Source: a virus
Taxonomy: Duplodnaviria > Heunggongvirae > Uroviricota > Caudoviricetes
DNA: 11,394 nt
Virus record (IMG/VR): IMGVR_UViG_2687453449_000005
Location: 1 to 11,394 of that record
Reading direction: 5' to 3' (one strand)
Position numbers and translations under genes: made by a program. Positions within the stretch are counted from its first letter, which is position 1. Every line of letters starts with the position of its first letter. Shown piece after piece: positions 1-11,394 of this stretch. The notes beneath the pieces are model-generated. The model did no database searches, was not told the DNA's origin, and saw only the letters and a program-made list of their open reading frames with translations.

Positions 1-90
1 TCACTCTGCCAGATGGCGCAATGCCATCTGGTATCACTTAAAGGTATTAAAAACAACTTTTTGTCTTTTTACCTTCCCGTTTCGCTCAAA
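1..90. other. Host chromosomal flank of the lambda attB site (B' arm side of attR)
   Basis: Reverse complement of 60-97 reads ...CAAATTAGTATAAAAAAGC preceded by GAGCGAAACGGGAAGGTAAAAAGACAAAAAG, which matches the E. coli attB/attR B' arm as I recall it (CTTGAGCGAAACGGGAAGG...). Recall-based; not verifiable here. Confidence 0.7.
9..31. repeat. Inverted repeat hairpin CCAGATGGC-GCAAT-GCCATCTGG in host flank
   Basis: Perfect 9-bp arms with a 5-nt loop seen directly. No adjacent T-run on either strand, so a terminator role is not supported; function unknown. Confidence 0.4.
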
Positions 91-105
91 TTAGTATAAA
101 AAAGC
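91..105. other. attR core: 15-bp lambda common core (TTAGTATAAAAAAGC = reverse complement of GCTTTTTTATACTAA)
   Basis: Exact 15-bp core string, flanked on one side by host-like sequence and on the other by lambda P-arm-like sequence. Confidence 0.85.
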
Positions 106-250
106 TGAACGAGAAACGTAAAATGATATAAATATCAATATATTAAATTAGATTTTGCATAAAAAACAGACTACAAAATACTGTAAAACACAACATATGC
201 AGTCACTATGAATCAACTACTTAGATGATATTAGTGACCTGTAACAGAGC
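106..250. promoter_or_regulatory. Lambda attP P arm (Int arm-type / IHF / Xis / Fis binding region), here part of attR
   Basis: TGAACGAGAAACGTAAAATGATATAAATATCAATATATTAAATTAGATTTTGCATAAAAAACAGACTAC...CAGTCACTATGAATCAACTACTTAGATG.TATTAGTGACCTGTAACAG matches the lambda P arm as recalled, in reverse-complement orientation. Confidence 0.8.
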
Positions 251-292
251 ATTAGCGCAAGGTGATTTTTTGTCCTCTTGCGCTAATTTTTT
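251..292 (+). terminator. sib / tI-like hairpin with T-run (lambda int retroregulation and terminator element)
   Basis: ATTAGCGCAAGG ... CCTCTTGCGCTAAT inverted repeat followed by TTTTTT, about 150-190 bp from the core on the P-arm side, where lambda sib/tI lies. Confidence 0.65.
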
Positions 293-783
293 GTCAACTC
301 ACTGGGTTAGTTGAATTTACAACCATGCTCAGTATCTCGATAAGCGCAGGGAGATGATGCAGTGGTGGGCGGACTGGCTTGATGAAAGTGTGCTGTAATC
401 CTCATATCCAACCTAAGAGATATGCACAATTTTGTGAATAAGATATTGAGAATTAGCAAAAGTTTTATTTTGCGTATCATCAATTCAGAATACAAAGTCA
501 CATGCTAATGTTCTGCATTGGTATCTTTTGCTTATCCATGTCTACATTATCGCCAAAATAATAGGTTTTGTCTATCAATTATTTGAATTACTTCCATGAA
601 ATTATAACGCACTTGTAATTTTTGATTATTTTTACCTCTCAAGTGTTTTGTTTCTTCTATCTCTTTGTATTTTTAGCGAAAGTATGCCATATTGCATTCT
701 AATATAACGTGGCGTTGTTTCTGTTTAATGATTTAAATAGTTCAACATAATATTTGCTAACAAATTATATCCAAGCAAATCAT

Positions 784-1929
784 ATGATATTATCATTACA
801 ATATATTAGAGGAATAGCATCATTACTTGTTGTTTTATTCCACTTCAGATTCTTGCTAAATGAGCACTACTCTCAGAAAGATTTGGGTGACCTATTATTT
901 GGGAATGGGCTGTCTGGAGTTGATATATTCTTCATATTAAGTGGATTTATCATCGTATACTCAACAAGAAAGAAGGAAGTTAATGATACTTTCTCATTCT
1001 CAATTAGAAGAATATTTAGAATATACCCATTACTAATCACATGCTGTTGCATGTATTACATAATAAACACTCAATTTCTAACCTATGCTACAGTTGAAAA
1101 CTTTAGAACCTTACTTATTTCCATCATTCCATTAAATATAAACTGGAATGAAGGCGCTCCATTCTTTGCCTATAATCTTTTGTACCCGGCCTGGACGATA
1201 ACATATGAAATTGGTTTCTATGTTTTTTTCGGGGTATCAATGTCTATTTCGCATAAATACAGAACAATTATCTGTTCTGTTTTTATAATCATGGTGGTCT
1301 CATTTACACAATACTATGTAAATGGAAATATATCATTTTCAGGTGATGTTAGTGCAGGGTTATTTACAGATAACTGGTTATTAGGATATACAAATGTTAT
1401 TACATCTCCAATGATGTATGAATTCGTTATTGGGATGTTTCTTTCTGAAATATTTACAAACATCAACGAAAGCAAAAGTATTAAAAGGATACTTTCAAAG
1501 TATTCGCTTCAAATACTATGGATTTCATGTGGTATATCCATAATATTATTCATTATCCAGCGACCTTATGGGCATGGATTGAATGGATTTGGGACTATGG
1601 CGATGATACTTATTGCATCATCATTAGTATATGAATACTGCAATATAACACCCAAAATAAAAATATTTAATTTCCTTGGTGAAATATCATATTCTTTATA
1701 TCTAATTCACGCCGTGATACTTGCTTTGTTCTTCTATTATAAGGCAGACCTTGCTGAAATTGGCATAACTGGTGGATTTTCTGTGTTTTTTTCCTTGGTT
1801 ATTATCTCAATAACTGCATCATATCCAATATATATTCTCATTGAAAAGCCAATGATAAATATAGGTAAACGTTTAATTGACAAGAGAAATAAGAGCATTA
1901 ACAAAAAAGAAACCGAAATAACAGCGTGA
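784..1929 (+). CDS. Acyltransferase family 3 (AT3) integral membrane O-acyltransferase, Oac/OafA-like; candidate surface-polysaccharide O-acetylase
   Basis: Track ORF 754..1929 starts at TTG; first ATG is 784 (MILSLQYIRGIASLLVVLFHF). AT3 hallmarks: N-terminal R...H in TM1 (YIRGIASLLVVLFH), GxxGVDIFFILSGF, and RRIFRIYP motif. Highly hydrophobic and AT-rich. Confidence 0.8.
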   Translation: MILSLQYIRGIASLLVVLFHFRFLLNEHYSQKDLGDLLFGNGLSGVDIFFILSGFIIVYSTRKKEVNDTFSFSIRRIFRIYPLLITCCCMYYIINTQFLTYATVENFRTLLISIIPLNINWNEGAPFFAYNLLYPAWTITYEIGFYVFFGVSMSISHKYRTIICSVFIIMVVSFTQYYVNGNISFSGDVSAGLFTDNWLLGYTNVITSPMMYEFVIGMFLSEIFTNINESKSIKRILSKYSLQILWISCGISIILFIIQRPYGHGLNGFGTMAMILIASSLVYEYCNITPKIKIFNFLGEISYSLYLIHAVILALFFYYKADLAEIGITGGFSVFFSLVIISITASYPIYILIEKPMINIGKRLIDKRNKSINKKETEITA

Positions 1930-1942
1930 TAATGACAAAGTT

Positions 1943-1964
1943 AGTGCCGGGATACCCCGGCACT
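1943..1964. terminator. Bidirectional intrinsic terminator candidate between convergent genes
   Basis: AGTGCCGGG-ATAC-CCCGGCACT perfect 9-bp stem, followed by ATTTAATCTATTT on + and a T-containing tract on -. Sits between the stop at 1929 and the - strand stop at 1967. Confidence 0.5.
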
Positions 1965-1966
1965 AT

Positions 1967-3304
1967 TTAATCTATTTCGTAAGTGACAGTGATTATCACT
2001 TCTGCATTATTACCCAAAACATTTTGATATATATTCATATTACCTGATAATGTAGTTGCTCCAGTAAGAGTTATATAACTACTATTTGCATCAACCCTTG
2101 GAAGTAAAGCGGTAACTGCTGTTGTTAAATTATTATAGTAGCCTGTACTTCCAACATATGCAGCTTTATTGCTTGATACATATGGTAACCCTCCAATTCT
2201 GAAACCATCTCCTGACCCAATTAAAGTTATACCAAGGTGACATGTTGCCGTTATGATATTGCCACTCCTGACATAATTTCCTTTCTGCTGATAATATGTG
2301 GCATTACCACCTACAGTCGGAATCCAAACTCCAGTTTCTATATCACCACATGACCAGTCTTCTGCTGTTGTTAGTTTTCCAGTAACAATAAATTTACTTC
2401 CACCACCAGAATTATAAGGAACAAAAATTGGATTTATTCTTGCATAAGTGTTACCGGTCTGCTCATTAAGATCATTTCTATCAATAAGAACTTGACCATT
2501 TTCGAAGTTTGAAATCTGGCAGTCTGTTACACTCCAGTCTCTTAACTTCACATCAGCATCCATGACACCAATAAGCTTACCAGCATTACCAATTTTTTCT
2601 TTATGCATATTTACATACACATTTCTTACCGTAACAGACTGAGGGAACAGATAATTAGCAGGATTAGTTTTATCACTTAAAACAGATATTACCCAAGGTC
2701 TGTATTGAGTACTTACTTCACAATAAAATCCATCAATAAGCGTTCCAGATGCCGCTGGCCCAAGTAGTATTCCACCTGTAGAGTGATGCGCACTACCTCC
2801 AATTACTCTCCCCTTAACGCAGTTAATATAGGCAAAATATCCTAAATCTTGATTGTCATAGGCTGACATAGCACAGTCTCTAACTGTTACTCGAGAATTT
2901 CCTCCGTCATAAGCTGAGCCATCAGTTTTCTTACCAACTATTGATATAAAGTTACCAATAGCAACTCGACTATAAAAAGTTTTTTTATAACACCCCTCAA
3001 TTAAAATATCCCAGTTTTCAAACTGAGCATATATATCATAAGAGCTGGCATTCCCATAATCTATGAAATCACAATATCTTATTTTCGGCGTATAAACGGC
3101 ACTTTTTATCTTTATACCACCTAATGCTCTCTCCCCACCTGTGAATCTAATGCCAGTAACGGTGTAATCGCCTTGATAGAAATTATCTGCGGTAGGATTA
3201 TTTTCGTCAGAATCATCACCCAATATAATAGCAAATTCACTCCCTGAATAATTAATTGTCGCCCCCTTATTTGAATATATAGTTACAGGTCTTATAAACT
3301 CCAA
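1967..3304 (-). CDS. Tailspike/tail-fibre-like receptor-binding protein, putative right-handed beta-helix glycanase domain; probably 5'-truncated remnant
   Basis: 445-aa ORF rich in G/N/S/T/Y/V with repeated short beta-strand-like segments (e.g. VTVRDCAMSAYDNQDLGYFAYINCVKGRVIGGSAHHSTGGILLG), typical of pectate-lyase-fold tailspikes. The ORF begins at TTG directly after an in-frame TGA; first in-frame ATG is far inside; no head-binding N-terminal domain. Confidence 0.5.
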   Translation of the reverse strand: MEFIRPVTIYSNKGATINYSGSEFAIILGDDSDENNPTADNFYQGDYTVTGIRFTGGERALGGIKIKSAVYTPKIRYCDFIDYGNASSYDIYAQFENWDILIEGCYKKTFYSRVAIGNFISIVGKKTDGSAYDGGNSRVTVRDCAMSAYDNQDLGYFAYINCVKGRVIGGSAHHSTGGILLGPAASGTLIDGFYCEVSTQYRPWVISVLSDKTNPANYLFPQSVTVRNVYVNMHKEKIGNAGKLIGVMDADVKLRDWSVTDCQISNFENGQVLIDRNDLNEQTGNTYARINPIFVPYNSGGGSKFIVTGKLTTAEDWSCGDIETGVWIPTVGGNATYYQQKGNYVRSGNIITATCHLGITLIGSGDGFRIGGLPYVSSNKAAYVGSTGYYNNLTTAVTALLPRVDANSSYITLTGATTLSGNMNIYQNVLGNNAEVIITVTYEID

Positions 3305-3623
3305 AGAATTACTTATTAGATACTCTCCATAAGGAAAAAAATCTCAACTGGTGGTGAGTACTTTGGTCTGGAGTTTACGTAATTCATAATATTGATTACA
3401 CCAACATCATAGATAATCGCCACCTTCTGGCGAGGAGCTCCTGATGCAATTAATCGCCAGGCCTACGCCCATTATTCAGGGGTAAATTTTGGACGGAGCC
3501 CCCAATTCCATCCTCAATTCTCCCTCGCACTGAGGAGTAGTAAGTGCAATTATTTAAAAAATCGCAAACAGAATATTATCATTTATTCTTGCATTCTGTT
3601 AATTAAAACCACACATAAAAACG

Positions 3624-3653
3624 TTGATACTTGATAAGTAAGTAGAGTATTAT
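3624..3653 (+). promoter_or_regulatory. Sigma70-like promoter candidate for the downstream acyltransferase
   Basis: TTGATA (3624-3629), 18-bp spacer, TATTAT (3648-3653), about 40 bp upstream of the ATG at 3697. AT-rich context, so false positives are likely. Confidence 0.3.
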
Positions 3654-3696
3654 TAATGGTTTTAATAACGAACCTTTTAATCATGAGAAGCCTCAA

Positions 3697-4722
3697 ATGA
3701 CTAGTACCAATAACATAACAAGAAAAAAAATGGATGGAGTAACAATCTTAAGATTTATAGCTGCTTTTTATGTGTTTATTTTTCACATTAACATGAGAGT
3801 CCCCGTTAATTTTGGAGAGCTTATTAATAAAACCATTAGCAATGGCGTCATTGGCATGAGTATTTTCTTCATGCTTTCTGGTTTTGTTTTGACTTATAAT
3901 TACTATGGTTCCTTGTCAAACAATTACTTCAGGAAGCGAATAGCAAGAATATTTCCAGCCTATTTATTTTGTGGGCTTTTAACCCTCCCATTTTTGTTAT
4001 CCAGCGATGCAAGCTTTTTAAAAATGATTGCAAGCATATTCTTGTTTGTTACTGGAATGCAATCATGGATTTATCAGACCTTCGATTTTTGGAATTTTAG
4101 CGGTACCTGGTCAATATCAGTGGAATTGTTTTTTTATGCCCTGTTTCCATTTTTGATAAAAAACATCAACAAAAACAATGTAATTTATGTTTTACTTTTT
4201 TCATATTTATCTTCAGCATTATTAATCCCATTATCTGATATAATTCAGGGACCTGTAGTTTGGTCCGTATATTACGCAACTCCAATATACAGGTTACCAG
4301 AATTTGTGGTGGGCGTCTGTATCGCAATACTTTTTTTAAATGGCTATCGTGTTAACCATTATACATGGCTATTAAGCATTTTATTATTTCTGTATGCTAC
4401 CACCCAGCAAAACAATAACTCCATGGGGGTGAACTATCTCACAATTCCTGCGATATCAATTATGTTATTGCACCTGGCAAAAATCAACATCAAAAACAAT
4501 ATTGCAAACAGAGCGATCATTTACTTTGGAGATATAAGTTATTCGTTTTATTTGATGCAATTACCTATATTATATTACCTGGATCATAATAAAAACTCAT
4601 TTATTCTTAACTATGGTCTTTTTAGCTGGCTTGTACTTTTTGTTATTAATACTGCAATGGCATCATTATCTTATCACTTTCTGGAGAAGAACGATAAAAT
4701 CAGAAAAATAATTACATCCTGA
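3697..4722 (+). CDS. Acyltransferase family 3 (AT3) integral membrane O-acyltransferase, second divergent copy
   Basis: ATG start; ILRFIAAFYVFIFH (R...H), GVIGMSIFFMLSGF, and RKRIARIFPAY motifs. Shares family motifs with the 784..1929 protein but is otherwise clearly divergent. Alternative start at the internal M (MDGVTIL...). Confidence 0.8.
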   Translation: MTSTNNITRKKMDGVTILRFIAAFYVFIFHINMRVPVNFGELINKTISNGVIGMSIFFMLSGFVLTYNYYGSLSNNYFRKRIARIFPAYLFCGLLTLPFLLSSDASFLKMIASIFLFVTGMQSWIYQTFDFWNFSGTWSISVELFFYALFPFLIKNINKNNVIYVLLFSYLSSALLIPLSDIIQGPVVWSVYYATPIYRLPEFVVGVCIAILFLNGYRVNHYTWLLSILLFLYATTQQNNNSMGVNYLTIPAISIMLLHLAKINIKNNIANRAIIYFGDISYSFYLMQLPILYYLDHNKNSFILNYGLFSWLVLFVINTAMASLSYHFLEKNDKIRKIITS

Positions 4723-4723
4723 T

Positions 4724-4749
4724 TTATTAGGGGGGTACCCCCCTAATAA
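4724..4749. terminator. 26-bp perfect palindrome TTATTAGGGGGGTACCCCCCTAATAA; bidirectional terminator candidate or protein-binding site
   Basis: Perfect 12-bp arms around a central TA, between the convergent stops at 4722 (+) and 4764 (-). No strong U-run, so terminator function is uncertain. Confidence 0.45.
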
Positions 4750-4763
4750 TACACCACATAATT

Positions 4764-5159
4764 TCAACGTATTATCTCTGGCCTTTCTGGCCAGGTTATT
4801 TCTGGAATTAAGGACAAATCCACTGACATTAAATTATTAACATATTCCTTCCATAACAAAAGATTGTTCTTGTTATTTTCACTTATAATACCGAGTAACA
4901 AATCTGACTGCCAGTTCATAATTAAACCATTAGCACTATCCAGCAGACACTGTCTTTCATTCTCTGCCTCACGAAGTAATTCATCATGTGTTTTTGGCGG
5001 CTGCGTAGGTGACGAAAGCTTTCCCTTATCATAGAACCAACCAATTCTTACATTATCGGATACAGGTATAACTAACGCATTAGTTGGTTGCCAGGCACTC
5101 TCACCATCCCATACCGCAATATTGGTAACAACACCATTTTCTATAACGGCATAGTTCAT
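4764..5159 (-). CDS. Tail fibre assembly protein (Tfa-like chaperone)
   Basis: Track ORF starts at TTG (5174); first ATG at 5157-5159 gives MNYAVIENGVVTNIAVWDG... (131 aa), with Tfa-like LGIIS motif and C-terminal W/P-rich tail. The ATG overlaps the upstream stop in a TGATG arrangement (translational coupling). Confidence 0.7.
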   Translation of the reverse strand: MNYAVIENGVVTNIAVWDGESAWQPTNALVIPVSDNVRIGWFYDKGKLSSPTQPPKTHDELLREAENERQCLLDSANGLIMNWQSDLLLGIISENNKNNLLLWKEYVNNLMSVDLSLIPEITWPERPEIIR

Positions 5160-5644
5160 CACGCATACTCCCAAATGATTGCAATACCAGCCATTCCGCT
5201 ACCTCCGGCACGCTGCTGCGTCGCTCCACCGTAGACACAGGCACCACCGCCTCCACCACCATGGCCATTAGCATTAATACCTTCGCCTACAATGGCTTGT
5301 GACCCAGCCCCCGCACCAAGGATTGAATCGCCGCCAGGCCCCCCCATCGCCAGACTGCCGGAATACCGAACGCCTGGTGAGCTATAACCGCTTCCAGACC
5401 CGATAATATTTGCACCTGTAAATCCCGGCTCAGTATATGCTCCATACGGACCAACAACCCCTGGAGCAGTTCCTTCAGCAAGAACATTCCCACCAAGGCC
5501 ACCTTTGGCAATTATGGTATTGCCGAAAGAGGTTGTTCCCCCGGGAGCACCAACCGACGCACTTGCACCAGTGCCACCATATCCGATTGTCACAGTAGTT
5601 ACGGTTGGATTATCCACGCGAGCTTTAACATACTCCCCGGACAT
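5159..5644 (-). CDS. Tail fibre protein, glycine-rich C-terminal (receptor-binding) domain; likely remnant of a longer side-tail-fibre gene
   Basis: 161 aa, extremely Gly/Ala/Ser/Thr-rich (GGxG repeats, GHGGGGGG), as in C-terminal domains of enterobacterial prophage side tail fibres; immediately followed by tfa. ATG start is preceded by a G-run with no properly spaced SD. Confidence 0.6.
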   Translation of the reverse strand: MSGEYVKARVDNPTVTTVTIGYGGTGASASVGAPGGTTSFGNTIIAKGGLGGNVLAEGTAPGVVGPYGAYTEPGFTGANIIGSGSGYSSPGVRYSGSLAMGGPGGDSILGAGAGSQAIVGEGINANGHGGGGGGACVYGGATQQRAGGSGMAGIAIIWEYA

Positions 5645-5666
5645 CCCCCCGCCACCACAAGCAGCA

Positions 5667-6428
5667 TTATTGGGATAGCTTCTCCACGCTGTAGGTACGC
5701 AAATGCGCTTTGTAGACCAGCTGCGCCGCGCCGACAGTAGCGCTGTCGAACGCGGTAAGACGATCCCAGATACGCTCTACAACCGACATTCCCCATTCGT
5801 TCTCGGTCATCTTCTGCTGAAATGGCAGCGTGACGCCATCAAAGCGAATCAGTCGACTGTGATGAATGCGCCAGGCAGGAATTCCCGTTGCTGTGGTCAC
5901 CACATCGTAAAACTCAGGTTTACCCAGGTCCGGCCCCATATCTTTAATGCGGCGGGTCAGTACCGGGTCAATCATCCAGCGGTCGAGCGGGAGAATCCCC
6001 TTAAACTTGCCCTTACCGATGGTTTCGGGTCGCAGCGGGGTCATTGGTGCCTGCCCCTCAATCATGATGAAACCCACCGCGCCGCCGTAGAGGCGCGACC
6101 ATTTCAGCACGTCATTCAGCGCATCCCAGATTTGCAACTCATCCAGTTGTGATTCGAGAATGCCACGATCTTTTGCATCAATTTCCGAAGTGATGCGAAT
6201 GCCTTTGCGGGTCATATCATCTGGGATAGCATCGACCGCTTCGCCGATGATCCAGGACGAACGATAGGACCATTCCACCAGCATGCGGTTACGACTGGTG
6301 AAATTAGCCCGGTAGGTGGATGCTGAGTGCTGGTTAGGTGTCTGCATCCCTACGCGGGCAATAAAATTCTCATAACCATCAGCTGTGGCCTGCGCAGTTC
6401 GCCGCAGGGCTTGTTTGTTTCGTGCCAT
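5667..6428 (-). pseudogene. Probable portal protein, N-terminal fragment (253 aa), truncated by deletion
   Basis: Start ATG overlaps the terminase large subunit stop (TGATG), the usual terL-portal coupling. At 253 aa it is far shorter than any portal and is followed after 22 bp by a tail-fibre C-terminal ORF. Portal assignment is by position and general character only. Confidence 0.45.
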
Positions 6429-8050
6429 CAGGCCTGTCTCCCTAGCAGCTCCCAGATGTTCAGGGCTGAATTCATTGGGGCATAGTTGATCATCACCGAG
6501 TCGGCAAGGTTTGGCGATCGGGTTCCATCAGGCTGTTTATCAATAACGATTTTTCCCACACCATTAATGGAATAGGTCGGCTGCGAAAGCTCGATGATGA
6601 GTTTATCTTTGAGTGCCATGCTACTGCTGATTGAGATGATTTCGTCCGGGTTGTAAGCCATACCTTCAACCACGGCGCGCCAGGTATTCTGAAAAAGTTT
6701 ACGTAACCGCCACCAGCTCTGGGCTTTGGCGTTAGCGAAGAAGTCCTTGTTCAGACGTGCGGCTTGCCCGTTGTCCCCGCGAACAGCTTCATCATCTGGA
6801 TCAAATACCGCGCCACTACCTCGAAACGGTGTGGCGAGTATTGACGGTCGACGCGCAACGTTACGCAGTTCGTTGATAGCGCGTGCATCGCCGCGAACGC
6901 CAGCGCCCAGCCCGTCCTCGTCAAAGCGAAACTCTTCGAGGTTGTCCTGTTCGCAAAAACCGAAAACCTTCTCGACGGACTGATAAATGTCACTGCCCAC
7001 ACCGGACCATTCCCGCACATTTTCCAGGAGGAAGCCATGACGGGTGGAAAATGCATTTTTGTCCCTGCCTTCGTCGGCGACATCCATCGCGCCAAGTCGT
7101 TTGCCTGTTGGCTGGATACCCAGTTTGATATGTGCATCAACGGCAGCCTGTACCCATTCGGATGGAATCAGGACGCCTTCCGCTGATGCGCTGTAGTTCA
7201 GATCAAGTTCCTGTGCCACCACCACCGGATTATCGATTTTCTCGCATTCCCTGCGATACCACTCTTCATCCTTGCGAGGATCATCCCGCCAGTGGAATGT
7301 GAATACCGGTATCTTCCCGCCATGACGCTTCTGAGCGAACGGGTTCGCCATGCCGTTAACTGAACTCAGGTCAATACGGCAACGCGTCGTTTGTGACAAC
7401 GCCGCATCAATCAGCAGAGGACGCTGAAGGAATGCAGCCTCATCAACCAGATAAAGCGTGGTACGGTCACCACGACCAATATTATCGCCAGCCTCGCCTT
7501 TGATAACGGCACCAGTTTCAGGAAACTCAACACGCATATATGGCGCGTGCTTCTTCTCGCTCCACGAACCGCGAAACTCTACAGGTAGTGTTTCCACGAA
7601 CTTGCGCGCCTTCCAGAACAATGCTTTCGGGTCACCGGTGCTGTCGACGTATTCCTCTTTACGGGAGCCGAAACCGATAACCATTTCTTTGTTGAAGAGA
7701 CAAAGCGAGCAGGCCAGTCCGATCGCGGTCCAACTGAGCCCCATTTCACGGGATTTTTCGGTAATACCATTCTCCCTATTGCCCCAGCGTTCCATAATCC
7801 AGTGGATCCACTCCTCCTGCTTAGGGAAGAGTAAAAACGGAATGGTCACCGGCAGGCCATAATCAATATTACGCGGGTCCGTTGTCATGCCCCAGTCGAT
7901 GATGAACTGAGCCGGGTTGGTTCGGTAAAACTGTTTTAGTGCTGGCAATATTTCAGGGTTCTGGCGAATGCGCTGTAAGCGTTCCATCCGCCATTCAAAA
8001 ACCATCTGGTAATCAGGATTTTTAAAATCGAAGGGGAATGGTAACGGCAT
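6428..8050 (-). CDS. Phage terminase large subunit (ATPase + nuclease)
   Basis: 540 aa; Walker-B-like [10 protein letters not shown]-terminal nuclease-domain motifs ([22 protein letters not shown]) of the kind seen in P22/Sf6-type terminases; ATG start 2 nt after the terS stop. Confidence 0.85.
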
Positions 8051-8052
8051 AC

Positions 8053-8559
8053 TTAGCCCATCATTTTTCTATACGCCTCTGCAGCCTGCTCCGGCGTTAA
8101 GTTGGTAATTTCTGTTCTGACTGGTCCTCCATCAGCGCCAGTCACTTCATTTTTGACGTTGTCTTTAAACGCCTGAACAGAAACATGACGCCCAAGCAAC
8201 TCAAGGTTTTTAACCTTATCAGGCCATTTGATTTTCTTCAGAAGTGCGGCGCTATCTGCGGATACCATCTCCATGACATCCATTCCTGATAGCGTTGTGC
8301 GCCATACCTTAGGCCAGTCTTTAATGGGTTTTAGATCACCGTTTTGCAGGAGAATGTCGAGCACATCCATCTGGTCGATTTCAATAAGGCGATTAAGTAC
8401 ATATTCTGCATTAATACCAACAAGATCATTGCGTTGCGCTTTCAGTTCAGCGATTCTGAATTGTATGTCAGGTTTTGACAGGTTTTCGGATGCGGTACGG
8501 TTAGCTGTCTTTGCGCTGTACCCCGCCCGAATATCGGCAATGAATAACAATCCTCGCAC
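8053..8559 (-). pseudogene. Terminase small subunit, N-terminally truncated at a recombination junction
   Basis: ...IRAGYSAKTANRTASENLSKPDI matches the conserved terS block, but the preceding residues do not resemble a terS N-terminus; the only start is GTG, an in-frame TAA lies 5 codons upstream, and no SD is present. Confidence 0.6.
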
Positions 8560-8581
8560 TCGCGGGGATTTCTTTTATCTG

Positions 8582-8607
8582 AACTCGCTACGGCGAGTTT
8601 TGTTTTA
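8582..8607 (+). terminator. Intrinsic terminator candidate (AACTCGC-TACG-GCGAGTT then TTGTTTT)
   Basis: 7-bp stem plus T-rich tract seen directly; lies in the junction/intergenic zone upstream of the 55-aa ORF. Confidence 0.3.
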
Positions 8608-8619
8608 TGGAGATGATAA

Positions 8620-8787
8620 ATGCACTTCCGAGTCACAGGTGAATGGAATGGAGAACCATTCAACAGAGTTATCGAAGCGGAGAACATCAACGACTGCTAC
8701 GACCACTGGATGATATGGGCGCAGATAGCACATGCAGACATAACCAATATTCGAATTGAAGAACTGAAAGAACACCAATCCGCCTGA
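8620..8787 (+). CDS. Small hypothetical protein (55 aa), lambda orf55-like, upstream of xis
   Basis: ATG at 8620 with GGAG 8 nt upstream; open frame to TGA at 8785-8787 (MHFRVTGEWNGEPFNRVIEAENINDCYDHWMIWAQIAHADITNIRIEELKEHQSA). Same position and size as the 55-codon ORF next to xis in lambda. Absent from the ORF track, presumably by length cutoff. Confidence 0.6.
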   Translation: MHFRVTGEWNGEPFNRVIEAENINDCYDHWMIWAQIAHADITNIRIEELKEHQSA

Positions 8788-8799
8788 TGGCGGTTTTTT
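8780..8799 (+). terminator. Small hairpin + T6 (CCGCC-TGAT-GGCGG-TTTTTT) directly after the 55-aa ORF
   Basis: 5-bp GC stem, 4-nt loop containing the ORF stop codon, and six T; seen directly. Not a named lambda terminator that I can recall. Confidence 0.3.
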
Positions 8800-8800
8800 C

Positions 8801-8840
8801 TTGCGTGTAATTGCGGAGACTTTGCGATGTACTTGACACT
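8801..8840 (+). promoter_or_regulatory. pI-type cII-dependent int promoter (TTGC-N6-TTGC box)
   Basis: TTGCGTGTAATTGC at 8801-8814 is a cII recognition repeat just upstream of and overlapping the xis start, as for lambda pI, whose transcript starts inside xis. Confidence 0.5.
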
Positions 8841-9045
8841 TCAGGAGTGGAACGCTCGCCAGCGACGCCCAAGAAGCCTTGAAACAGTTCGTCGATGGGT
8901 GCGCGAATGCAGGATATTCCCTCCTCCGGTTAAGGATGGAAGAGAATATCTGTTCCACGAATCAGCGGTAAAGGTTGACTTAAATCGACCAGTAACAGGT
9001 AGCCTTTTGAAGAGGATCAGAAATGGGAAGAAGGCGAAGTCATGA
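8827..9045 (+). CDS. xis: Excisionase Xis (lambda Xis, 72 aa)
   Basis: MYLTLQEWNARQRRPRSLETVRRWVRECRIFPPPVKDGREYLFHESAVKVDLNRPVTGSLLKRIRNGKKAKS matches lambda Xis as recalled; GGAG SD 9 nt upstream; 23-nt overlap with int as in lambda. Confidence 0.95.
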   Translation: MYLTLQEWNARQRRPRSLETVRRWVRECRIFPPPVKDGREYLFHESAVKVDLNRPVTGSLLKRIRNGKKAKS

Positions 9046-10093
9046 GCGCCGGGATTTACCCCCTAACCTTTATATAAGAAACAATGGATATTACTGCTAC
9101 AGGGACCCAAGGACGGGTAAAGAGTTTGGATTAGGCAGAGACAGGCGAATCGCAATCACTGAAGCCATACAGGCCAACATTGAGTTATTTTCAGGACACA
9201 AACACAAGCCTCTGACAGCGAGAATCAACAGTGATAATTCCGTTACGCTACATTCATGGCTTGATCGCTACGAAAAAATCCTGGCCAGCAGAGGAATCAA
9301 GCAGAAGACACTCATAAATTACATGAGCAAAATTAAAGCAATAAGGAGGGGGCTGCCTGATGCTCCACTTGAAGACATCACCACAAAAGAAATTGCGGCA
9401 ATGCTCAATGGATACATAGACGAGGGCAAGGCGGCGTCAGCCAAGTTAATCAGATCAACACTGAGCGATGCATTCCGAGAGGCAATAGCTGAAGGCCATA
9501 TAACAACAAACCCTGTCGCTGCCACTCGCGCAGCAAAATCAGAGGTAAGGAGATCAAGACTTACGGCTGACGAATACCTGAAAATTTATCAAGCAGCAGA
9601 ATCATCACCATGTTGGCTCAGACTTGCAATGGAACTGGCTGTTGTTACCGGGCAACGAGTTGGTGATTTATGCGAAATGAAGTGGTCTGATATCGTAGAT
9701 GGATATCTTTATGTCGAGCAAAGCAAAACAGGCGTAAAAATTGCCATCCCAACAACATTGCATGTTGATGCTCTCGGGATATCAATGAAGGAAACACTTG
9801 ATAAATGCAAAGAGATTCTTGGCGGAGAAACCATAATTGCATCTACTCGTCGTGAACCGCTTTCATCCGGCACAGTATCAAGGTATTTTATGCGCGCACG
9901 AAAAGCATCAGGTCTTTCCTTCGAAGGGGATCCGCCTACCTTTCACGAGTTGCGCAGTTTGTCTGCAAGACTCTATGAGAAGCAGATAAGCGATAAGTTT
10001 GCTCAACATCTTCTCGGGCATAAGTCGGACACCATGGCATCACAGTATCGTGATGACAGAGGCAGGGAGTGGGACAAAATTGAAATCAAATAA
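9023..10093 (+). CDS. int: Tyrosine integrase (lambda Int, 356 aa)
   Basis: MGRRRSHERRDLPPNLYIRNNGYYCYRDPRTGKEFGLGRDRRIAITEAIQ...SQYRDDRGREWDKIEIK matches lambda Int essentially throughout; catalytic residues at lambda numbering R212, K235, H308, R311, H333, Y342 are all present. Confidence 0.97.
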   Translation: MGRRRSHERRDLPPNLYIRNNGYYCYRDPRTGKEFGLGRDRRIAITEAIQANIELFSGHKHKPLTARINSDNSVTLHSWLDRYEKILASRGIKQKTLINYMSKIKAIRRGLPDAPLEDITTKEIAAMLNGYIDEGKAASAKLIRSTLSDAFREAIAEGHITTNPVAATRAAKSEVRRSRLTADEYLKIYQAAESSPCWLRLAMELAVVTGQRVGDLCEMKWSDIVDGYLYVEQSKTGVKIAIPTTLHVDALGISMKETLDKCKEILGGETIIASTRREPLSSGTVSRYFMRARKASGLSFEGDPPTFHELRSLSARLYEKQISDKFAQHLLGHKSDTMASQYRDDRGREWDKIEIK

Positions 10094-10172
10094 TGATTTT
10101 ATTTTGACTGATAGTGACCTGTTCGTTGCAACAAATTGATAAGCAATGCTTTTTTATAATGCCAACTTAGTA
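10094..10172. other. attL remnant: lambda P' arm plus first 6 bp of the core (TTAGTA), interrupted by IS10
   Basis: AATGATTTTATTTTGACTGATAGTGACCTGTTCGTTGCAACAAATTGATAAGCAATGCTTTTTTATAATGCCAAC + TTAGTA matches the lambda P' arm up to the core, then breaks into an IS10 end. Confidence 0.85.
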
Positions 10173-11394
10173 CTGAGAGATCCCCTCATAATTTCCCCAA
10201 AGCGTAACCATGTGTGAATAGATTTTGAGTAAGCAGGGTTGCAGCCACGAGTGAGTCTTCCCTTGTTATTGTGTAGCCAGAATGCCGCAAAACTTCCATG
10301 CCTAAGCGAACTGTTGAGAGTACGTTTCGATTTCTGACTGTGTTAGCCTGGAAGTGCTTGTCCCAACCTTGTTTCTGAGCATGAACGCCCGCAAGCCAAC
10401 ATGTTAGTTGAAGCATCAGGGCGATTAGCAGCATGATATCAAAACGCTCTGAGCTGCTCGTTCGGCTATGGCGTAGGCCTAGTCCGTAGGCAGGACTTTT
10501 CAAGTCTCGGAAGGTTTCTTCAATCTGCATTCGCTTCGAATAGATATTAACAAGTTGTTTGGGTGTTCGAATTTCAACAGGTAAGTTAGTTGCTAGAATC
10601 CATGGCTCCTTTGCCGACGCTGAGTAGATTTTAGGTGACGGGTGGTGACAATGAGTCCGTGTCGAGCGCTGATTTTTTCGGCCTTTAGAGCGAGATTTAT
10701 ACAATAGAATTTGGCATGAGATTGGATTGCTTTTAGTCAGCCTCTTATAGCCTAAAGTCTTTGAGTGACTAGATGACATATCATGTAAGTTGCTGATAGG
10801 TTTCCAGTTTTCCGCTCCTAGGTCTGCATATTGTACTTTTCCTCTTACTCGACTTAACCAGTACCAACCCAGCTTCTCAACGGATTTATACCATGGCACT
10901 TTAAAGCCAGCATCACTGACAATGAGCGGTGTGGTGTTACTCGGTAGAATGCTCGCAAGGTCGGCTAGAAATTGGTCATGAGCTTTCTTTGAACATTGCT
11001 CTGAAAGCGGGAACGCTTTCTCATAAAGAGTAACAGAACGACCGTGTAGTGCGACTGAAGCTCGCAATACCATAAGTCGTTTTTGCTCACGGATATCAGA
11101 CCAGTCAACAAGTACAATGGGCATCGTATTGCCCGAACAGATAAAGCTAGCATGCCAACGGTATACAGCGAGTCGCTCTTTGTGGAGGTGACGATTACCT
11201 AACAATCGGTCGATTCGTTTGATGTTATGTTTTGTTCTCGCTTTGGTTGGCAGGTTACGGCCAAGTTCGGTAAGAGTGAGAGTTTTACAGTCAAGTAATG
11301 CGTGGCAAGCCAACGTTAAGCTGTTGAGTCGTTTTAAGTGTAATTCGGGGCAGAATTGGTAAAGAGAGTCGTGTAAAATATCGAGTTCGCACAT
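10173..11394 (-). mobile_element. IS10 (IS4 family), partial in window: inside end at 10173, element continues about 107 bp beyond the window
   Basis: Terminal CTGAGAGATCCCCTCATAATTTCCCCAAAGCGTAACC matches the IS10 inside end as recalled. Transposase stop lies 14-16 bp inside this end and the 402-codon ORF starts at the last window base, fitting the 1329-bp IS10 layout. Confidence 0.93.
10186..11394 (-). CDS. IS10 transposase (DDE, IS4 family), complete 402 aa
   Basis: MCELDILHDSLYQFCPELHLKRLNSLTLACHALLDCKTLTLTELGRN... with DAGF and YSKRMQIEETFRDLK (YREK signature) motifs; matches Tn10/IS10 transposase as recalled. Confidence 0.95.
   Translation of the reverse strand: MCELDILHDSLYQFCPELHLKRLNSLTLACHALLDCKTLTLTELGRNLPTKARTKHNIKRIDRLLGNRHLHKERLAVYRWHASFICSGNTMPIVLVDWSDIREQKRLMVLRASVALHGRSVTLYEKAFPLSEQCSKKAHDQFLADLASILPSNTTPLIVSDAGFKVPWYKSVEKLGWYWLSRVRGKVQYADLGAENWKPISNLHDMSSSHSKTLGYKRLTKSNPISCQILLYKSRSKGRKNQRSTRTHCHHPSPKIYSASAKEPWILATNLPVEIRTPKQLVNIYSKRMQIEETFRDLKSPAYGLGLRHSRTSSSERFDIMLLIALMLQLTCWLAGVHAQKQGWDKHFQANTVRNRNVLSTVRLGMEVLRHSGYTITREDSLVAATLLTQNLFTHGYALGKL

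Follow-up and report, generated by a model that had tools for sequence, protein, structure and literature searches.

Positions 5676-5677 of the window, the 11,394-nucleotide stretch of viral DNA that we analyzed, almost certainly mark the scar of an internal deletion, probably by illegitimate recombination, in a lambdoid prophage at the lambda attachment site. A portal gene and a glycine-rich tail-fiber gene, both truncated, are fused there out of frame, and the same site in another E. coli strain holds a prophage in which both genes are complete and the intervening genes are still in place.

The chromosomal setting of the element is clear from its near relatives. In a megablast search of complete E. 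coli genomes, window blocks 1-8533 and 8529-10172 match E. coli B REL606 with 100% identity, and equally BL21, ATCC 11303, E. coli C, and others. In REL606, this region lies between ybhB and ybhC, the lambda attachment site; window position 1 comes directly after the ybhB stop codon, and positions 10093-10172 correspond to the lambda P' arm. The element can thus be recognized, on sequence identity, as lambda*B, the known defective prophage of E. coli B, BL21, and C-type strains, which in REL606 and BL21 shares both the ybhB-ybhC site and the portal/fiber junction with the window. This prophage has been described as a 12.1-kb element that occupies attB, a trait common to the B lineage (BL21 genome paper, PMC4395058), and it is entered at ybhC-ybhB in a table of the mobile elements of safe laboratory strains (PMC3032704, Table 2). 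The features around the junction are collected in Table 1. The portal gene lies directly downstream of terL, and the single base (6428) that the terL stop codon and the portal start codon have in common within TGATG suggests that translation of the portal ORF is coupled to that of terL. At the other end, the start of the chaperone gene and the stop of the fiber gene overlap by one base. Near the ybhB end, two genes of the acyltransferase family (341 aa, window 3697-4722; 391 aa, window 754-1929; both plus strand) are intact in the prophage; they run against the direction of the phage late genes and look like lysogenic-conversion genes for the acylation of surface polysaccharide.

Table 1. Features of the window around the portal-fiber junction
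Feature	Position	Strand	Evidence
terS	8053-8559	minus	ORF
terL, 540 aa, intact	6428-8050	minus	ORF list; PHROG 2 terminase large subunit, E=3e-32; TerL in related genomes
Portal-like ORF, 253 aa	5667-6428	minus	ORF list
Portal-derived DNA, codons 1-251 of the 488-aa portal gene	5676-6428	minus	Identity to L005; PF06381
Out-of-frame end of the portal ORF, Ser-Gln-TAA from fiber-derived DNA	5667-5675	minus	Translation across the junction
Deletion junction, 2-bp TA	5676-5677		Three-way alignments
Fiber-derived DNA, codons 198-369 and stop of the 369-aa Gly-rich tail-fiber gene	5159-5677	minus	172/172 residues
Residual Gly-rich ORF, 161 aa	5159-5644	minus	ORF list
Tail-fiber assembly (chaperone) gene, intact	4764-5159	minus	PF02413 Caudo_TAP, E=2.8e-23

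Three-way alignments place the breakpoint at a 2-bp TA that is present in both parents. Matches to the portal side, which come from more than 300 E. coli genomes and from vB_EcoM-606R2, SEN34, and other phages, all start at window 5676, and matches to intact fiber genes all stop at window 5677, so that the BLAST end points at the junction fall at query positions 527/528. The window follows the fiber parent to ...TTGGGATA and the portal parent from TAGCTTCTCC..., and the crossover lies within or beside the TA, the only sequence that the parents have in common at that point. Read along the coding strand, the portal frame is GAG AAG CTA / TCC CAA TAA and the fiber frame TAT CCC AAT AAT. Because the frames differ at the junction, the two genes are fused out of frame, and the portal ORF ends after two more codons. 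The preliminary description of this DNA had placed a 253-aa portal-like ORF with its end at 5667 and, 22 bp later, a glycine-rich ORF whose ATG is embedded in a G-run. All of these are found where it put them, with 22 bp (5645-5666) separating the portal stop codon (5667-5669) from the fiber ATG (5642-5644), which is embedded in GGCGGGGGGATG. It was also right that the fiber frame is open upstream of this ATG, where 44 codons without a start codon lead into portal-derived DNA in a different frame, and the breakpoint interval that it proposed, about 5645-5720, is now narrowed to two bases.

The surroundings of the junction hold no recognizable agent of the rearrangement. No IS element, long repeat, or site-specific recombination site is present at the junction, and direct or inverted repeats are absent from 5300-6100. 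Scans of the region around the junction returned no Rfam families and no promoter-like sites, and terminator-like sites there are no more common than in shuffled controls. We calculate from P(k) = (k+1)(1/4)^k(3/4)^2 that at least 2 bp of common sequence are expected at ~16% of random junctions; the TA therefore identifies neither a specific pathway nor a microhomology-dependent mechanism. A deletion by a Gin/Pin-type invertase was considered separately, since relatives such as 606R2 have an invertase near their fiber genes. We rejected this route because no invertase gene is annotated near the fiber in the intact prophage described below and because the junction lies inside the coding sequence of both genes.

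An undeleted lambdoid prophage of ~42 kb occupies the same ybhB-ybhC site in E. coli PRO_A-1407-6W-A_ESBL (NZ_CM136170.1; L005/L006). Its Int (WP_000533643.1), Xis, TerS (WP_001218995.1), and fiber chaperone (WP_001104982.1) are identical to those of REL606, and in these proteins as in its site it resembles the window. Unlike the window, it keeps a full lambda-like early region (N, cI, cro, cII, O/P, nin, Q, and lysis) together with a complete myovirus-type structural module that includes a 488-aa portal and a 369-aa fiber. Window 1-5677 corresponds to L005 20001-25677 at 99.9% identity, and from position 5678 onward the window resumes at L005 42340, with 751/751 bases identical in the portal part (5678-6428). 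Both flanks match this one intact element collinearly, at two separate positions and without change of order or orientation, and because they are 99.9-100% identical to those separate parts, chance is excluded as an explanation. The terS part is identical as far as window 8533, and ~1% of positions differ within terL; because of the divergence in terL, L005 is best regarded as a close relative of the ancestor and not as the ancestor itself. The intact form must nevertheless be the ancestral one because its genes are complete, whereas the window holds out-of-frame halves. No intermediate, partly deleted forms are present among the records listed.

The missing interval, L005 25678-42339, measures 16,662 bp and takes in the final 237 codons of the portal gene, 22 complete annotated genes, and the initial 197 codons of the fiber gene. 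The lost head genes encode a head morphogenesis protein, a DUF2213 protein, a Gp24-like cement protein, and a DUF2184 protein that is annotated as a member of the major capsid family in strain 8178; genes for connector and neck proteins are also among the 22. The lost tail genes include DUF3383, DUF3277, chaperones, and a 1,986-nt gene annotated as a lytic transglycosylase, and the lost baseplate genes encode the plug, the spike, baseplate J, and a DUF2612 protein. A second intact relative, located at another chromosomal site in strain 8178 (L004), has 16,843 bp for the same interval. Relative to L005/L006, lambda*B also lacks ~13.5 kb of the early region, as judged from annotation coordinates, so that at least two large losses, the portal-fiber deletion among them, have occurred.

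The portal side of the junction encodes the first part of a portal protein. The 253-aa product agrees at 251 of 253 residues with a 488-aa protein of related prophages (its residues 1-251), and only the last two, Ser-Gln, differ: translation over the junction gives ...YSVEKLSQ*, where the intact portal has ...EKLRE. The ORF matches PF06381 Phage_portal_3 with E=1e-55 and 189 bits (cut-off 33.8), over profile positions 6-207/357 only. Coverage is similarly partial for PHROG 146 (portal; E=2e-90, profile 5-259/587) and for TIGR01555 (HI1409 family; profile 1-230/404), where the score of 117 bits is below the cut-off of 196. Thus, neither PF06381 nor TIGR01555 is covered over its full length by the 253-aa ORF. 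The intact 488-aa relative, which is 99% identical over the common part, covers PF06381 from 7 to 355 of 357 and TIGR01555 from 1 to 400 of 404, practically end to end, and it matches solved portal structures, namely, those of Pam3 (8hds, E=1.9e-37), 9jlf, 9l01, and the E217 gp19 portal (8fvh). Taken together, these matches identify the 253-aa ORF as a fragment of a portal-family member, by sequence an incomplete protein.

In PGAP/RefSeq, the truncated portal (window 5667-6428; L001 9971-10729) goes under "anti-CBASS protein Acb1 family protein," whereas "DUF1073 domain-containing protein" is the name given to its intact copies. Because the Phage_portal_3 and PHROG portal matches and the PDB portal structures matched by the intact relative all point to a portal, the Acb1 label looks like a naming artifact. 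No paper in the literature library searched connects Acb1 with DUF1073.

On the other side of the junction, the fiber-derived DNA (5159-5677) encodes 172 residues, all 172 of which are identical to residues 198-369 of the 369-aa fiber in L004; complete 369-aa fiber ORFs were found in both L004 and L005. The 161-aa ORF of the window begins at an internal methionine that corresponds to residue 209 of the intact fiber, and within the REL606 fiber remnant PGAP calls a still shorter version, a 144-aa hypothetical protein. The portal and fiber remnant ORFs have the REL606 locus tags ECB_RS03920 and ECB_RS03925. The N-terminal baseplate-attachment part (residues 1-197) is absent from the remnant. On the intact fibers, PF21722 Gly_rich_2 scores 39.7 bits over profile positions 4-223/226 and spans residues 169-365, so that the break falls inside this domain. 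On the remnant, the same family matches profile positions 42-223/226 with 23.5 bits, under the cut-off of 24.3, and a complete Gly_rich_2 domain above the Pfam cut-off is therefore lacking there. The PHROG tail-fiber families 863 and 6202 likewise match the remnant by their C-terminal ends only. In intact relatives, the fiber gene comes after the DUF2612 and baseplate J genes. The remnant is followed by the Caudo_TAP chaperone gene, whose product is the same protein in the annotations of REL606, L003, L004, and L005. PGAP treats the intact fiber ORFs inconsistently, as split features, as pseudogenes, as a "carbohydrate kinase," or not at all.

These comparisons bear out the preliminary description, which had proposed that a deletion of probably more than 15 kb fused a portal fragment to a fiber fragment and removed every capsid, head-completion, tail, and baseplate gene that should lie between them. 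Its expectations for the two products also hold: the portal product aligns with the N-terminal half of a portal rather than end to end with a complete protein of a non-portal family, and the fiber ORF, with homology that ends at 5677, does not correspond to a stand-alone protein. Its term for the latter, a tail-fiber C-terminal cassette, is correct insofar as the remnant is a C-terminal fragment but not as a whole cassette, given the position of the break within Gly_rich_2.

The glycine-rich C-terminal half of the fiber and its chaperone behave as an exchangeable cassette in their own right (L003 8010-8960; L004 20400-21509; L005 25159-26268). The cassette is found on two unrelated N-terminal halves, one in a 316-aa fiber with ymfQ and baseplate J nearby and the other in the 369-aa fiber with DUF2612 adjacent, and the common sequence starts near ...LGLGDGSGRLIQCQVF.

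Related phages are available for the portal side of the junction. The terL and portal DNA of Escherichia phage vB_EcoM-606R2 is 99.6% identical to the portal side of the window (from 5676), and that of Salmonella phage SEN34, which belongs with 606R2 to the genus Brunovirus, is 88% identical. Both are complete phages in which the order of structural genes is the same. Their tail-fiber genes are different, however, with no DNA match to window 5150-5677. A blastn search with 5150-6430 against phages matched the portal side only, and no phage in the collection has the fiber at the DNA level. A tblastn search of the same collection with the 172-aa remnant gave no match, for which the low-complexity filter acting on glycine-rich sequence is the likely cause.

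Of 5,426 complete E. coli genomes, 43 carry this junction. Among the carriers are laboratory B strains (REL606, several BL21 assemblies, and ATCC 11303) and E. coli C, as well as poultry, pig, human, and seawater isolates, a distribution that indicates a natural event. We infer that the deletion is older than laboratory domestication and has been inherited vertically.

One illegitimate-recombination deletion is the simplest reading of these data. The ancestor would have been a phage of ~42 kb whose early region and integrase were lambda-like. Its structural module would have been of the myovirus type, running from terS, terL, and portal through head, neck, sheath/tube, tape measure, and baseplate to fiber and fiber chaperone. 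Illegitimate (non-homologous) recombination would have fused portal codon 251 to fiber codon 198, removing the intervening segment in what was probably a single event and leaving a fiber remnant without its baseplate-attachment half and without the first ~29 residues of the glycine-rich domain. With the portal and fiber halved and the structural genes gone, the element cannot build heads or tails. The end state would be the fixed, vertically inherited, defective prophage remnant seen as lambda*B, in which the two remnant ORFs are probably without function. Nested successive deletions that ended at the same junction would look identical to a single event and cannot be told apart from it.

Among the alternatives, the strongest, although we consider it unlikely, is that two different prophages recombined within one cell or that several rearrangements followed one another. 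The fiber and chaperone cassette occurs with 99.5-100% identity at other chromosomal sites (L003 near tRNA-Pro/yejM; L004 near pphA), which shows that it moves between phages, and the ~1% divergence of terL from L005 beside an identical portal part is a sign of mosaicism. However, one intact prophage at the same attachment site holds both flanks with the same order, orientation, and chromosomal neighbors. In addition, an exchange between two sites would rearrange the chromosome, whereas ybhB and the int-side attachment site are in their usual places.

Two other readings would assign a function to the truncated genes, and both are very improbable. In the first, the terS-terL-portal' remnant, or the half-portal by itself, was kept to interfere with packaging or assembly of superinfecting phages that have related portals or terminases. 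If this were true, the scar would be part of a domesticated defense module rather than neutral debris. The only points that fit are that terS and terL are intact and that the junction is perfectly conserved, and common descent accounts for this conservation just as well. In the second, for which the probability is slightly lower still, the two short ORFs would be complete, purpose-built genes, a small portal-like or "Acb1-family" gene and a small glycine-rich one, that form a natural compact module. The Acb1 family name and the 144-aa hypothetical call might be taken to support this reading, as might the perfect conservation of both ORFs across the 43 genomes. PGAP itself, however, flags the portal remnant of REL606 as a pseudogene ("incomplete; missing C-terminus"), the product consists of the first 251 portal residues plus two out-of-frame codons, profile coverage ends at about half length, and the fiber piece starts inside Gly_rich_2 and scores below the Pfam cut-off. 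The complete conservation fits recent common descent and provides no evidence of selection. That the junction is an assembly or sequencing artifact can be dismissed almost outright, since it is identical in 43 independently sequenced complete genomes and we found no point in favor of such an error.

The window differs from lambda*B of REL606 and BL21 in two respects, neither of which is found in the 43 junction-bearing genomes. First, compared with REL606 it is shorter by another ~2,010 bp between terS and xis (8529-8533; L001 12835-14843), where the matching blocks overlap by 5 bp. The loss takes the 5' end of terS, which encodes 183 aa in REL606 and is represented in the window by a 168-aa ORF with a GTG start, and with it two hypothetical genes and an Rz1-like lysC; a DUF551 pseudogene, a DUF4752 gene, and the greater part of an ASCH-domain gene are missing as well. 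This gap is presumably what the preliminary description counted as its first deletion junction. Second, an IS10 copy with the end sequence CTGAGAGATCCCCTCATAATTTCCCC starts at window 10173, and its transposase ORF (402 aa, 10186-11394, minus strand) runs to the end of the window, which coincides exactly with the start codon. Because the preceding 10093-10172 is the lambda P' arm and ends in ...CAACTTAGTA, the IS10 appears to have inserted within the core of the attachment site on the int side.

The window appears to hold another joint. A 445-aa "hypothetical" ORF (1967-3304, minus strand) has its counterpart in the C-terminal part of a 649-aa "phage head-binding domain-containing protein" encoded by a prophage that adjoins intS in strain 2018-05-5CC, with 98.7% DNA identity over window 313-3410 and an end at 3410. 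The acyltransferase gene at 754-1929 accompanies the 649-aa gene in that prophage as well, and the prophage looks P22-like from its Arc-family and intS genes. The 445-aa ORF thus looks like a further structural gene that has been truncated, derived from a phage of a different type, and since the otherwise intact L005 prophage already has this joint, it is an older mosaic joint.

Internal deletions that leave portal, terminase, and tail-fiber fragments are also a feature of the cryptic prophages of E. coli K-12, for example e14 with its portal pseudogene. Those prophages derive from different phages and occupy different integration sites from the element in the window, so the likeness is one of the kind of decay.

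Overall, the scar at 5676-5677 is an ordinary case of prophage decay, found in a defective prophage that is well known; as such it is already known, and its significance beyond correct annotation is little. For annotation, the "anti-CBASS Acb1 family" label in RefSeq denotes a truncated portal here, which is useful to know when genomes are mined for anti-defense genes. A full-length relative of lambda*B has been located in a wild E. coli strain, and the breakpoint, exact to the base, and the missing gene content are now given for the resident prophage of BL21 and other B strains, the strains most widely used for protein expression.
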